Positions 13,479 to 24,366 of a stretch of 64,000 bases of DNA are shown one piece after another. Origin of the DNA: Escherichia coli (GTDB lineage Bacteria; Pseudomonadota; Gammaproteobacteria; Enterobacterales; Enterobacteriaceae); assembly GCF_050920415.1 (NCBI RefSeq), contig NZ_CP169309.1; one strand, written 5' to 3'. The position numbers and the translations under genes were made by a program. How positions within the stretch are numbered: position 1 is the stretch's first letter; each line of letters opens with the position of its first letter. A model generated the notes under the pieces. It worked only from the letters and a program-made list of their open reading frames with translations. It searched no databases and had not been told where the DNA came from.

Positions 13479-13493
13479 TTGGTCGCACGAGAG
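13479..13493. repeat. Integrase-distal att core repeat (degenerate copy of the proL 3' end)
   Basis: 15/16 match to 24289-24304, with one G missing. Confidence 0.75.
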
Positions 13494-13507
13494 TAGTTTA
13501 ATTGAGT

Positions 13508-13578
13508 GTATAACTAAATGATTTTAAATAATATTCTTTATTCAACTTTTAAATCGTATAACCAAACGTATAACTAAA
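13508..13578 (+). repeat. Three copies of the 11-mer GTATAAC(T/C)AAA (putative integrase arm-type sites)
   Basis: Copies at 13508-13518, 13556-13566 and 13568-13578. The same 11-mer occurs four times at the other end of the island. Confidence 0.6.
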
Positions 13579-13660
13579 ATAATTTGCTGAAAAAGTGTAC
13601 AATTTCAGCAATAATTGCCCTAGCGACTATCATCCTGCTCCCCGGATTTTTTCCGGTTAA

Positions 13661-13897
13661 ATGTTAATCAGGCTGCTGGGCTTTGCCTGTTCGGTAGGTG
13701 TAATGATTATCGTAATACTTTTCCCCCAATGGGGTAAAAGCATCAACCGTAACGGAAGTCGTTATGGTTGCCTTGATGATCTGCGTGGTCATTATGACCA
13801 TTCAGCCAATGACCTTAATCAGAGCTTTTCGCTAAAAATGACGTTGGCCACTCGTCCGAAAAGCACAAAATCCCATCGATTTTTAATTAACGGTTAA
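13661..13897 (+). CDS. Hypothetical small membrane protein
   Basis: 78-aa ORF with a hydrophobic N-terminus (LLGFACSVGVMIIVILF). The stop lies within an ACGGT-TAA-ACCGT hairpin followed by CTTTTT. No recognisable homology. Confidence 0.3.
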   Translation: MLIRLLGFACSVGVMIIVILFPQWGKSINRNGSRYGCLDDLRGHYDHSANDLNQSFSLKMTLATRPKSTKSHRFLING

Positions 13898-13908
13898 ACC
13901 GTCTTTTT

Positions 13909-13943
13909 GTCACGTCGTGTCACTGGTTGTCACTCTCCGTCAC
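13909..13943 (+). promoter_or_regulatory. Four direct GTCAC repeats at exact 10-bp spacing (putative DNA-bending/recombination-directionality or regulator sites)
   Basis: tGTCACgtcg tGTCACtggt tGTCACtctc cGTCACgatc, with GTCAC at 13909, 13919, 13929 and 13939. Confidence 0.5.
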
Positions 13944-14035
13944 GATCTCCGATAGCCTGGCTGCAAATTAAACTACGAAAATTTCGTAGTTCTGACTTCT
14001 TTCAGATAGTCGGTTGCCTGGTTACACGAAAAAAA

Positions 14036-14407
14036 TTACTTCCTGCGTTTATCCCGCTTTGTATGTCCGTGCTGAATGCCCCGCAGTGGATCTTCTTTTT
14101 TCAGGTCGATCCCCATGTCCGTTAGTGTTTTTGTGGCGGCGGTTCTTATGGCACAAATCAGGTCTCTTTCCGGTTCCCGGGTTATGGTTGCCTTCCGGAT
14201 ACATGCCGTTCGTCGTTCCGTTACATACTGACGCGCTTCATCACTTGCCGCCTGTTTCAGTAACTCACCCCAGCGATTAGCCGCCCGTCGCCATAAACCT
14301 TTCGCTTCCAGTTCTTCCGCTTTGTCATCATGCACCATAAGCATAATCCCATTGATACCTGTTAAATCTGAATGGTTGGTTTCCGTTCTTTTGATAATTT
14401 CCCTCAT
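14036..14407 (-). CDS. PerC/Pch-family transcriptional regulator
   Basis: Contains MVHDDKAEELEAKGLWRRAANRWGELL, the signature LE--G-WRRAA-RW of PerC/Pch proteins. The true start may be at the internal Met near 14338-14344. Confidence 0.7.
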   Translation of the reverse strand: MREIIKRTETNHSDLTGINGIMLMVHDDKAEELEAKGLWRRAANRWGELLKQAASDEARQYVTERRTACIRKATITREPERDLICAIRTAATKTLTDMGIDLKKEDPLRGIQHGHTKRDKRRK

Positions 14408-14410
14408 AGC

Positions 14411-14440
14411 TTATTGTATGACAGTACTGTCCCACAATAA
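14411..14440. promoter_or_regulatory. Nested inverted repeat in the divergent perC-like / 99-aa gene control region
   Basis: TTATTGT-atGACAGTACTGTCcc-ACAATAA. The inner 12-bp perfect palindrome is at 14420-14431. Confidence 0.5.
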
Positions 14441-14450
14441 GGAATCACAC

Positions 14451-14750
14451 ATGAGAATGACCAGGCACAAAAAACAGATTCTTGAACTTTACAAACCTGA
14501 GTATCGCGATTGGGTGCGGGTGGAGGCCGGAGATCCGCCTTTTGATGTTCGTGGTGTGACAGTGCTGCTCTATGGTTCCGAATATCAGCGATATCACATA
14601 GAGGCAACCCGACGAACGTTAAACGCTATGGTAAATGATGGGATCCTGTACCGCGTGAAAGTGCGCGAACCCCGCTTTGATGTGCGTATCGGTAGCGATG
14701 GCGCTCACTGTACGGTAATCCGGTACGGGCTGGGTAAATCAGATGATTAA
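14451..14750 (+). CDS. Hypothetical protein (99 aa)
   Basis: An AAGGAA RBS lies 7 nt upstream of ATG 14451 (MRMTRHKKQILELYKPEYRDW...). In frame with ORF 14322-14750. No recognisable family. Confidence 0.5.
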   Translation: MRMTRHKKQILELYKPEYRDWVRVEAGDPPFDVRGVTVLLYGSEYQRYHIEATRRTLNAMVNDGILYRVKVREPRFDVRIGSDGAHCTVIRYGLGKSDD

Positions 14751-22315: not shown

Positions 22316-22383
22316 TATGTTTTACCTCGTTAATCCGGCGTATTCCGGTGATAAATACGGTAAAACAGGGCAGGGCGGGAAAA

Positions 22384-22417
22384 ACAGTACCCACCGTTTT
22401 AAAACGGTACCCACTGT
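22384..22417. promoter_or_regulatory. Composite operator upstream of alpA
   Basis: ACAGT-ACCCAC-CGTTTTAAAACG-GT-ACCCAC-TGT. It contains a perfect 16-bp palindrome ACCGTTTTAAAACGGT (22393-22408), direct ACCCAC repeats and outer ACAGT/ACTGT arms. Confidence 0.5.
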
Positions 22418-22485
22418 TTTTTATCTTATTGATTACGCTTTTCTTTCTGCAAAAAAATAGCGACCGCAAGGGGCCGCTATTGTGA

Positions 22486-22728
22486 TTACCGTTTCCACTT
22501 CTTAGGTCGCCCACCGCATTTAAGGCTGGTGGGCCTCAGCACCTTGTCGATGCTTTCAGCCAGATTTTTCGATGCGCCACGCGAGCGCAAAAAACTGACT
22601 ACCTCGTGTTTTGTGGGGGCAGTTGATTTGTCTTCCGGATCGTACGTTGACCAGAATTCACGATTTGCCATTAAGGCCAACTGAAGGCCTTCACCATAGG
22701 CAGGGGATACCTTTTCATTGAAAAACAC
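22486..22728 (-). CDS. Hypothetical protein (80 aa) with basic C-terminal tail
   Basis: ORF between int and alpA ending ...GGRPKKWKR, followed by a hairpin and T7 run. No family recognised. Confidence 0.5.
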   Translation of the reverse strand: MFFNEKVSPAYGEGLQLALMANREFWSTYDPEDKSTAPTKHEVVSFLRSRGASKNLAESIDKVLRPTSLKCGGRPKKWKR

Positions 22729-22829
22729 TCGGATAACTCCTTGAATTTCAAGAGTCGGGTCTCTCTGTATATGGTGATTATACGATGGTTTAGCATGGTT
22801 TGCATCGCTTTTACTGGTTTTTTGTACAG

Positions 22830-24071
22830 TTATACGGCACGGATACCCCTTTTACCACTGGCTATGGTCACTCCGGTTGCTGCGGCCTCTACAAATTCCC
22901 CCCACCAGCGCATAAGCACCACGCGCTTTTCCAGGTAGTTACTTCGGTTATATGCTCGCCTTACCTCGTTCGTGTCCACGTGTGCGAGTGCGGCCTCGAT
23001 TACGTCCGGCTCGAATCCTTCCTCGTTCGCTGCTGTGCTGAATATGGCGCGTAATCCATGAGACACCAGCACGCCAGCGAATCCCATTCGCCGCAATGCT
23101 GCGTTGGCGGTCTGGCTGTTCATAGGCTGCCGTGGGTCTTTCAGGCTAGGGAAAACGTGCTCGCGGTGGTGGCTGATTGGCTTCATGGCCTCCAGTACCG
23201 CCATAGCCTGACTACAAAGCGGGATAACGTGATCACGCCGCATCTTCATGCGTCCGGCGGGGATCGTCCATTGTTGCGCGTCCATGTCGATTTCTTCCCA
23301 GCGTGCTGACGATGCTTCAACCGGACGGGTTACAGTCAGTAGCTGCCATTCAATCAGTAATCTGGTCTGCCGTTCTGTTGCTGATACGGATAAAGCCTGC
23401 ATAAGCTCCGGCAACTGTTCGGGGCGGATTGTTGGCATATGTTTTTTTACAGGGGAGGGGAACGCCTTACGCACATTCATAGCCGGATTGGCATCAATCA
23501 GCCCACTGTTGGCGGCGTAATCCATTACCTCATTAACGCGCTGTAAAACCCGCTTGAGTGTTTCCAGGTTGCCGCGCTCCTTGATGGGTGTAAGCACCTC
23601 AACGAACCTTCGGGCAGTGAGGGTATCTATTGGCGTGTTGCCGATGAACGGGAATACATATTTATCCAGCGAACGCCAGATGTCTTTAATCGTGTTGGGG
23701 GCCAGATTCTGGCTGATTTTCACCTGGTACCATGCCGCCGCCACATTTTCGAACGTGTTCCCTTGTCTTCGGGCCTCTGCCTCTCGTTTTTTCTTCTCAT
23801 GGTCCTGCGGGTCAGTTCCGGCACTGATTAACGTCCTGTACTCGCTACGGCGTTTTCTGGCATCAGCCAGGGAAACATCTTCAAGAGATCCAAAACTCAG
23901 CAATATTCTTTTTTTGTCCGATGGTCGGTAGTAGGAAAATCGCCAGAGTTTTGATCCGGACGGTTTTACCAGGAGAAAAAGCCCACCGCCGTCCTGTAGG
24001 GTGTACTCCTTTTGCGCTGGTCTGGCTGCTTTGATCTGCACTGTGGTTAATGGGGGTGTTTTTCTCGCCAT
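22830..24071 (-). CDS. int: P4/CP4-57-type tyrosine integrase
   Basis: 413 aa from MARKTPPLTTVQIKAARP...GGLFLLVKPSGSKLWRFSY (the N-terminal arm-binding domain typical of P4-type integrases). The catalytic region contains HGLR...ALAH...Y. The gene is adjacent to a tRNA. Confidence 0.9.
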   Translation of the reverse strand: MARKTPPLTTVQIKAARPAQKEYTLQDGGGLFLLVKPSGSKLWRFSYYRPSDKKRILLSFGSLEDVSLADARKRRSEYRTLISAGTDPQDHEKKKREAEARRQGNTFENVAAAWYQVKISQNLAPNTIKDIWRSLDKYVFPFIGNTPIDTLTARRFVEVLTPIKERGNLETLKRVLQRVNEVMDYAANSGLIDANPAMNVRKAFPSPVKKHMPTIRPEQLPELMQALSVSATERQTRLLIEWQLLTVTRPVEASSARWEEIDMDAQQWTIPAGRMKMRRDHVIPLCSQAMAVLEAMKPISHHREHVFPSLKDPRQPMNSQTANAALRRMGFAGVLVSHGLRAIFSTAANEEGFEPDVIEAALAHVDTNEVRRAYNRSNYLEKRVVLMRWWGEFVEAAATGVTIASGKRGIRAV

Positions 24072-24102
24072 ATGTCTATGATTCCACACGAAAAAACAGG
24101 GT

Positions 24103-24158
24103 TTTAGTTATACGGCTTTAGTTATACGCCAGCCCGTATAACTAAACGTATAACTAAA
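24103..24158. repeat. Four copies of the 11-mer GTATAACTAAA (two inverted, two direct), putative integrase arm-type sites
   Basis: Inverted copies at 24103-24113 and 24117-24127. Direct copies at 24136-24146 and 24148-24158. Confidence 0.6.
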
Positions 24159-24208
24159 AAATCCGGCTGATAGCTTATAAATCCGGTGATGTTCGGTGAC
24201 TAAAAACC

Positions 24209-24243
24209 ATAAAAAAACCCGCCAATCAAGTGATTAGCGGGTT
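24209..24243 (-). terminator. Rho-independent terminator downstream of proL, supplied by island DNA
   Basis: On the minus strand: AACCCGC-(14 nt)-GCGGGTT followed by T7. Confidence 0.6.
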
Positions 24244-24289
24244 ATCCCTGTCTTATTCGGTGCTTTCCGGTGATATCCGGTGGGCGATT

Positions 24290-24366
24290 TGGTCGGCACG
24301 AGAGGATTTGAACCTCCGACCCCCGACACCCCATGACGGTGCGCTACCAGGCTGCGCTACGTGCCG
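24290..24366 (-). tRNA. proL: tRNA-Pro (anticodon GGG)
   Basis: The minus strand reads CGGCACGTAGCGCAGCCTGGTAGCGCACCGTCATGGGGTGTCGGGGGTCGGAGGTTCAAATCCTCTCGTGCCGACCA. It has cloverleaf arms, a GGG anticodon after U33 and an encoded CCA. Confidence 0.95.

Follow-up and report, generated by a model that had tools for sequence, protein, structure and literature searches.

The 64,000-nt stretch of Escherichia coli DNA analyzed here (the window; contig NZ_CP169309.1, assembly GCF_050920415.1) carries a 10.8 kb island between yejO and tRNA-Pro(GGG), with a 15-nt att repeat at its edges. The island is most probably a classical Gram-negative phage-inducible chromosomal island (PICI) of the EcCICFT073 type, with a proL-specific integrase and a late module unlike that of the characterized model. 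The satellite class and the use of a single capsid gene are known, and only the late-module variant appears new. This variant, in which a protease-capsid fusion is combined with two cos sites for two types of small terminase (TerS) and no Rpp protein, is not described in the literature searched.

Classical Gram-negative PICIs are typified by EcCICFT073 (Fillol-Salom 2018, PMC6092414; Fillol-Salom et al. 2019). We took this model element from the CFT073 chromosome for comparison. Its genes run int, alpA, a divergent YlcI/YnfO-type gene, an icd-like gene, small open reading frames (ORFs), DUF4222, pri, an 85-aa ORF, SSB, PerC, a 68-aa ORF, major capsid, decoration, a 137-aa ORF, RppA, and a 93-aa ORF. 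Both elements are about 11 kb and have in common int, alpA, a divergent regulator, the icd-like gene, small ORFs, DUF4222, pri, an iteron origin, an 83/85-aa ORF, a capsid gene, cos, and the 93-aa ORF. A PerC gene is likewise found in both, as are two cos sites. The primases are 91% identical over their full length, the 83-aa protein encoded after the island origin is 98% identical to its counterpart, and the terminal 93-aa proteins are 83% identical. The same GGTAGANAG iterons lie directly after pri in both. The shared gene order, primase, 83- and 93-aa proteins and iterons therefore make the island a member of a characterized satellite family. The first-pass annotation, made from the sequence alone, had held that the gene set matched neither P4 nor the capsid-forming PICIs (cf-PICIs), and had taken membership in a characterized family as decisive against its reading. 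It was right that the island has neither the hallmark genes of P4 nor the head and packaging genes of cf-PICIs, but the island fits the classical Gram-negative PICIs, which were omitted from its comparison, and an EcCICFT073 backbone at 83-98% protein identity places it among them. The features shared with EcCICFT073 are, in order from the integrase:

22830-24089, minus strand: P4-type tyrosine integrase, proL-specific (Pfam PF13356, PF22022, PF00589).
22109-22315, minus strand: AlpA-family regulator (Pfam PF05930, E 4.5e-8).
21347-21541, plus strand: small Arc/ribbon-helix-helix (RHH)-like regulator, divergent from the icd-pri operon, at the position of YlcI/YnfO in EcCICFT073 (phrog_228, E 7.8e-6).
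21001-21252, minus strand: Icd-like protein, first gene of the replication operon, with a promoter-like site at 21353-21324 (NCBIfam NF033153; phrog_6196).
20251-21011, minus strand: three small ORFs, namely DUF4222 (20251-20550), an 86/71-aa ORF (20567-20827) and a 78-aa ORF (20775-21011) (profiles, annotation).
18506-20254, minus strand: primase-helicase with D5_N, DUF5906, Pox_D5 and a P4-family primase C-terminal domain (Pfam, NCBIfam).
18270-18492, no strand: replication origin, two GGTAGANAG iteron sets and an AT-rich stretch (motif count; same iterons at the EcCICFT073 origin).
17966-18217, minus strand: 83-aa PICI-specific protein (PHROG match).
14874-15155, minus strand: 93-aa PICI-specific protein, matching the last EcCICFT073 gene (phrog_1561).

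The two elements also differ. Their integrases are only 25% identical and their att sites differ. EcCICFT073 encodes a lambda E-like major capsid protein (MCP), whereas the island encodes a ClpP::scaffold::MCP fusion and has no counterparts of the EcCICFT073 decoration protein, 137-aa ORF, RppA or SSB. The cosN core is ACGGGGCGGGCGGGCG in the island and the lambda-type GGGCGGCGACCT in EcCICFT073. The cos pair is co-oriented around the capsid gene in the island but inverted around rppA in EcCICFT073, where both sites are functional (PMC6092414). For EcCICFT073, a cosB of its own and a requirement for RppA in retargeting the helper TerS are reported (PMC6739421), whereas the island cosB copies that of the candidate helper phages.

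The origin region is typical of PICIs. Seven copies of GGTAGANAG fall within 18342-18492, compared to 0.63 expected across the whole window. They are arranged as two sets with an AT-rich stretch between them, immediately past the 3' end of the primase gene, so that a primase-replicase gene is followed by an origin of the PICI layout. Iteron count and position thus bear out the origin placed there by the first-pass annotation. The corresponding EcCICFT073 origin was demonstrated to be functional by experiment (PMC6092414).

The island is inserted precisely at proL. ARAGORN found a single tRNA in the window, and its 3' end, TGGTCGGCACGAGAG (24290-24304), has a second copy with one base deleted, TGGTCG-CACGAGAG, at 13480-13493. 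We modeled the empty site by fusing the left flank (the yejO 3' end) straight to the tRNA and compared it with 5426 complete E. coli genomes. The rebuilt site is one unbroken match in 3784 of them, K-12 and C600 derivatives included, so the 10.8-kb segment entered by precise site-specific insertion. The empty-site match in K-12 confirms that yejO and proL are neighbors there, as stated in the first-pass annotation; ARAGORN, the repeat search and the empty site also agree with its placement of the segment between a degenerate copy of the tRNA 3' end and intact proL. Arm-type recombinase sites usually lie just inside both ends of an element, and GTATAAC(T/C)AAA arm-type repeats are clustered immediately inside both island ends. 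The integrase has the Pfam domains Arm-DNA-bind_3, Phage_int_M and Phage_integrase, and as in other PICIs lies with a specific att site at one end of the element. Strain OkiPb01679 carries a 99.8%-identical island in the same place, and its RefSeq annotation is consistent with the gene list of the first-pass annotation. The neighboring yejO autotransporter gene (10782-13376) is an intact 864-aa ORF in the window, is frameshifted in the OkiPb01679 annotation, and is truncated in Nissle 1917. The elements of the insertion site are:

13480-13493, no strand: attL core, degenerate copy of the proL 3' end (repeat search and empty-site reconstruction).
13507-13579, no strand: left-end arm-type repeats, putative integrase or AlpA binding sites (repeat family).
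24106-24160, no strand: right-end arm-type repeats TTTAGTTATAC / GTATAACTAAA (repeat search).
24290-24366, minus strand: tRNA-Pro(GGG), proL, including the attR core (ARAGORN).

To profile the island, its ORFs were searched with Pfam, PHROGs and NCBIfam, the small ORFs also with PADLOC, and Rfam was used for RNAs. Every gene listed in the first-pass annotation was found, in the order stated. The AlpA-family gene lies beside int and is co-oriented with most genes, as expected of a PICI. No portal, terminase, connector, tail, lysis, CI, Sid, Psu or Delta gene was found in the island by Pfam, PHROGs, NCBIfam or PADLOC. The first-pass annotation had recognized no portal, terminase, connector, tail, lysis or CI-type repressor gene and no Sid/Psu/Delta-like protein, and had proposed such a search as a check; the profiles concur on each. 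The unassigned gaps are all ≤~570 nt, and there is therefore no room for a hidden protein of that kind. The single capsid gene was also read correctly, with capsid and protease fused in one gene. This gene content supports a non-autonomous satellite with int, alpA and pri, the origin following pri, as had been proposed. Lack of tail, holin, portal and head-tail connector genes in an element of ~10-20 kb is a further PICI trait seen in the island. The only profile matches for the 83-, 75- and 93-aa ORFs are PHROG families of unknown function. PADLOC run on ten small ORFs gave no defense-system match, and a permissive Pfam scan (E up to 5) of the unassigned small ORFs returned nothing usable. 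Two apparent ORFs were discarded. A 367-aa ORF at 21001-22104 on the minus strand is spurious, the real gene being its 3' end, the Icd-like part. A 77-aa ORF (orf77; 17562-17795, minus strand) seemed conserved by tblastn, but its counterparts in related islands carry in-frame stops and its ratio of nonsynonymous to synonymous substitution rates (dN/dS) is 0.92.

The late module is built around a true 98-nt repeat, 79% identical between 15311-15408 and 17850-17947, which the first-pass annotation had listed as cassettes A and B. These cassettes are two cos sites, overlooked there:

15188-15410, minus strand: cos A, with a terminator-like hairpin, a cosN core ACGGGGCGGGCGGGCGCGGAAAAA at 15332-15355 and a cosB-like region; aligns with the cos region of lambdoid phages of TerS type 1 (O157 prophage, VT1-Sakai, Stx2a) (alignments).
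17765-17947, minus strand: cos B, with a terminator-like hairpin at 17930-17947, a cosN core at 17871-17894 and a cosB-like region; aligns with the cos region of phages of TerS type 2 (1720a-02, CP-1639) (alignments).

Both are co-oriented and lie on either side of the pair formed by the capsid gene and a 75-aa ORF (orf75). Cassette A has ~200-nt matches of 86-87% identity in hundreds of other genomes. Its counterpart in an O157:H7 prophage is found between an Rz-type lysis gene and a DUF1441 small-terminase gene, downstream of which are terL, a portal gene and a ClpP::MCP fusion gene. The cassette B counterpart in phage 1720a-02 is in the same Rz-terS intergenic position. Against our phage collection, cassette A is 85-86% identical over ~200 nt to the cos regions of Stx2a and VT1-Sakai, and cassette B is 89-90% identical over ~140 nt to those of 1720a-02 and CP-1639. 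The similarity continues across the cosN-to-terS region. A core common to cassettes and phages, ACGGGGCGGGC(G)GGCGCGGAAAAA, is the counterpart of the lambda cosN ACGGGGCGGCGACCTCGCGG. Like other PICIs, the island thus has cos sites resembling those of its candidate helpers. The cosN cores of both island sites have one extra G (GGGCGGGCGGGCG) compared to most phage copies (GGGCGGGCGGCG). We rejected the idea that this G is island-specific, as genuine prophages have the same variant beside terS type 1 (L007, L010, L017, L019-L023). Two cosN variants therefore circulate in this phage group.

To relate the cos sites to terminases, we recovered 55 prophage loci from IMG/VR by the cosN core and typed them by TerS and cosB. 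The cosB type follows the TerS type exactly in all 55, and the island has one cos per type:

TerS type 1: 97-100% identical to the O157 prophage TerS; cosB 82-87% identical to cassette A and 69-72% to cassette B; core to terS ~180 nt.
TerS type 2: 75-78% identical to the O157 prophage TerS; cosB 66-68% identical to cassette A and 89-95% to cassette B; core to terS ~140 nt.

The two DUF1441 TerS types (for example L004 5488-5964 and L006 5198-5674) differ in the N-terminal ~70 residues and are nearly identical in the remainder. By analogy with lambda Nu1 (PMC6739421), the N-terminal region would bind DNA and the remainder would contact TerL. No TerS or Rpp homologue was found in the island by tblastn with RppA and both phage TerS types or by Pfam, PHROG and NCBIfam profiles. 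As cosB is also copied from the phages, the simplest reading is that the helper terminase recognizes these sites directly, suggesting the island may be packaged by phages of either TerS type.

The capsid gene and orf75 complete the module:

15414-17303, minus strand: fusion of a ClpP-like prohead protease, a scaffold linker and an HK97-type major capsid domain, 629 aa (Pfam PF00574 and PF25209; NCBIfam NF045540).
17300-17527, minus strand: orf75, 75 aa, overlapping the capsid gene start, PICI-specific (phrog_4934).

The 629-aa protein scores 890 bits against NF045540, the ClpP-like prohead protease/major capsid protein fusion family. It aligns collinearly, at ~51% identity, with the head protein of a group of lambdoid phages comprising VT1-Sakai, several Stx2a and Stx2d phages, CP-1639, 1720a-02, mEp460 and cdtI. 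None of 50,697 phage records has a protein more than 60% identical to it, and the island capsid therefore represents a long-standing satellite lineage. Behind the protease domain, the island fusion has a Pro/Ala-rich linker ~35 residues shorter than that of a phage version. Its translation shows intact ClpP motifs for Ser, His and Asp (GMAASMAS, MIHAP and FADEV). Measured against a proL island variant with 88.9% DNA identity, dN/dS is 0.09 for the fusion gene (protease 0.145, linker 0.114, capsid domain 0.053) and 0.05 for orf75. The fusion gene is under purifying selection and is therefore functional rather than a relic, although this selection argues only that the capsid protein does something. 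A capsid-morphogenesis gene is a PICI trait, but the capsid family here differs from that of EcCICFT073, with no detectable similarity between the two capsid proteins. We found no orf75 homologue in the 50,697 phage records or in the PDB. A single-sequence AlphaFold model of orf75 has a disordered N-terminus and two helices at a predicted local distance difference test score of 62, too weak for a fold search, and an RHH-like fold would be a guess. The idea that such a capsid-coupled small ORF is a lambda gpW-like head-completion protein was dropped, as neither orf75 nor its EcCICFT073 counterpart is similar to gpW.

We also examined how widely these parts occur in E. coli. The late module is encoded in 142 of the 5426 complete genomes, often from strains of the Shiga toxin-producing E. 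coli type, and the proL integrase in ~440 genomes. PICIs embedded at terL codon ~330-337 carry the orf75, ClpP::MCP, cos and orf93 module with proteins 99-100% identical to those of the island. At prophage locus L012, for example, terL residues 1-337 and 330-707 are split by a PICI of ~10.4 kb, the helper-embedded configuration of Nielsen et al. (PMC10111431). These terL-embedded relatives tie the module to phages with the 51%-identical head protein and TerS type 1. Further terL-embedded PICIs were seen in IMG/VR (with L012: L013, L015, L018, L026, L061, L071, L072, L080, L082 and L085), some with ClpP::MCP; at least the one in L013 has a lambda E-like capsid module in place of ClpP::MCP. The same late module is also present in PICIs with other integrases and replicons. 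Nissle 1917 has a proL PICI (L087; NZ_CP058217 1696481-1707464) with an integrase 94% identical at the nucleotide level and an EcCICFT073-like late module, with genes for an E-like capsid, a decoration protein and, by annotation, a small terminase. In strain 2012C-4221, the proL site and late module of the window island are combined with a RepA-helicase replicon. As other proL islands mix these parts, the parts are exchangeable modules.

The remaining features lie in the variable left part of the island and around alpA:

14036-14407, minus strand: PerC-family regulator, start at 14338 in the Prokaryotic Genome Annotation Pipeline (PGAP) annotation (Pfam PF06069, E 7.7e-23).
14410-14441, no strand: 32-nt palindrome between the divergent PerC and 99-aa genes, putative operator (palindrome search).
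14451-14750, plus strand: 99-aa ORF divergent from PerC, within the variable accessory region, with no family assignment (profile searches).
14758-14857, no strand: three ~20-nt palindromes AGA(A/G)YGYAAATTTRCAYT, spaced ~35-44 nt, between the convergent 99-aa and 93-aa ORFs (palindrome search).
22486-22728, minus strand: 80-aa ORF (61 aa per PGAP), no assigned function (ORF list, annotation).

The three palindromes at 14758-14857 match the array reported in the first-pass annotation. Together with the 32-nt palindrome they resemble operators recognized by a dimeric DNA-binding protein, and the 99-aa protein might, as a guess, bind them. The 570 nt between the RHH gene and alpA (21541-22109) hold no annotated gene. 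An Rfam scan of the island in E-value mode returned the tRNA alone, with no P4 CI-like or other known RNA in this gap, and the stretch has no similarity to the 57-aa ORF at the equivalent place in EcCICFT073. A strong plus-strand terminator-like hairpin at 22050-22077, ~500 nt past the RHH stop, suggests an unannotated plus-strand transcript or small ORF may be encoded there.

Three other accounts of the island were weighed against its assignment to the EcCICFT073-type PICIs. The first-pass annotation had seen a new satellite class outside the P4-like elements, the PICIs and the cf-PICIs, whose members contribute only a protease-capsid subunit of their own. Consistent with this, we found no Sid, Psu, Delta, portal, terminase or Rpp, the island encodes a complete protease-scaffold-capsid polypeptide where EcCICFT073 has a capsid-only homologue, and the literature searched yields no paper linking PICIs with a prohead-protease fusion or Stx phages. 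However, the backbone and origin of EcCICFT073 largely refute a separate class. The lambda-type late module of proL islands with the same integrase, as in Nissle 1917, points to a module swap within the family, and a new class is improbable. Nor is a capsid gene without the other head genes an under-described hijacking strategy, as had been suggested: most Gram-negative PICIs carry just one capsid gene (21 of 29 reference elements; PMC10111431), and Ccm of SaPIbov5, a satellite-encoded capsid homologue, was already described as a hijacking device (PMC8569155), as were the capsid homologues of PmCI172 and EcCICFT073. Marginally less probable still is an origin from a cf-PICI or lambdoid prophage in which the portal, terminase and tail genes were lost and only a decayed, immobile remnant is left. 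It retains a sole structural gene, PGAP flags the Icd-like gene as partial, and the O157 Sakai SpLE elements showed no excision in one study (PMC2669165). A remnant is difficult to reconcile with a compact module conserved at 99-100% over many islands with differing integrases and replicons, with the strong purifying selection on the capsid gene and orf75, or with the intact att sites, integrase, alpA, primase and iterons and the retention of both cos sites. At only ~51% identity to any phage version, the capsid is also not a recent prophage leftover.

Dependence on a P2-type helper as a P4-like satellite is the least credible account and is very improbable. The island does encode a P4-type integrase, AlpA, an Icd-like protein and a primase with a P4-family C-terminal domain, but an integrase, AlpA and an alpha-type primase-helicase are also PICI traits and so do not discriminate between the two (PMC10085698). 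We found neither the psu-delta-sid operon nor an epsilon/Ash antirepressor, and with the largest unassigned gap at ~570 nt there is no space for them. The cos core has the lambda-like GGGCGG form and belongs to the Rz-terS intergenic region of lambdoid phages, not to P2, and the capsid gene matches lambdoid phages. SatelliteFinder counts capsid morphogenesis among five PICI core components and classes elements with four of the five as Type B (PMC10085698). By these published criteria, applied to gene content, the island has four of the five components and would be a PICI of Type B.

As an EcCICFT073-type PICI, the island would be mobilized in several steps. Induction of a helper prophage of the VT1-Sakai/Stx2a/O157 or 1720a-02/CP-1639 group would be followed by AlpA turning the island on and the integrase excising it, and Pri would then fire the iteron origin to give concatemers, both by homology with EcCICFT073. 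The helper TerS/TerL would read cos A or cos B directly. No Rpp-type adaptor would be required, because cosB is copied too. Island DNA would then be packaged with helper portal, connectors and tails. Multimer packaging is reported for EcCICFT073, and in helper-sized heads four island units (43 kb) would suit a helper genome of ~46 kb. The island capsid fusion most likely co-assembles or competes with the helper capsid, which would bias assembly or interfere with the helper as Ccm does. It is also possible, though distinctly less likely, that the fusion, ~35 linker residues short, builds satellite-specific and perhaps smaller shells on the helper portal. The module would then be a functional intermediate between classical PICIs and cf-PICIs, and the two cos sites would open the island to two helper lineages of differing TerS specificity, Stx-converting phages included.

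Some observations weigh against this assignment and life cycle. No candidate helper lies inside the 64-kb window. The cos A site is just ~85% identical to phage cos regions, and TerS/Rpp, one of the five SatelliteFinder PICI core components, is not present. No late-module promoter was located, and terminator-like hairpins precede both cos sites. Induction, excision, replication and packaging of the island are predicted from sequence and homology. The EcCICFT073 capsid homologue c1499 has no detectable phenotype in published work; by that precedent the island capsid gene may be irrelevant and its product dispensable for transfer.

The E. coli PICI group with this module appears tuned to the VT1-Sakai/Stx2a and 1720a-02 lambdoid phages, because it has a diverged copy of their protease-capsid protein, cos copies of the exact types, and terL-embedded relatives. 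If these PICIs do ride on or interfere with Stx-converting phages, the yield of Stx phages could change, and so could the dissemination of PICI cargo, of which PerC-family regulators are a common kind (PMC11773190). As a simple model, a satellite could broaden its helper range by carrying one cos per TerS type, with no need for an Rpp-like adaptor.

Beyond EcCICFT073, the island resembles parts of several known satellites. Like cf-PICIs such as EcCIEDL933, it has the int, alpA and pri logic together with its own capsid protein and protease. The cf-PICIs also encode a portal, head-tail adaptor, connector, HNH, TerS and TerL, none of which is in the island. P4 has in common with it a P4-type integrase, an AlpA-family regulator, a P4-family primase-helicase and a cos copied from the helper. 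Unlike P4, the island is without Sid, Psu, Delta and epsilon, and its cos and capsid affinities are lambdoid, not P2-like. SaPIbov5 combines helper-like cos packaging with a single homologue of the helper capsid (PMC8569155; PMC6893505), as the island does, but is Gram-positive with unrelated sequences. Its Ccm is 23% identical to the helper capsid and lacks a protease domain, whereas the island protein has ~51% identity to its phage counterpart and contains protease and scaffold parts. The helper-embedded PICIs (Nielsen et al. 2023, PMC10111431) have the same late module and lie inside terL of the candidate helpers. The island integrase is 39% identical to those of the terL-embedded PICIs, and the island is integrated in chromosomal proL instead of a late gene of a helper prophage.

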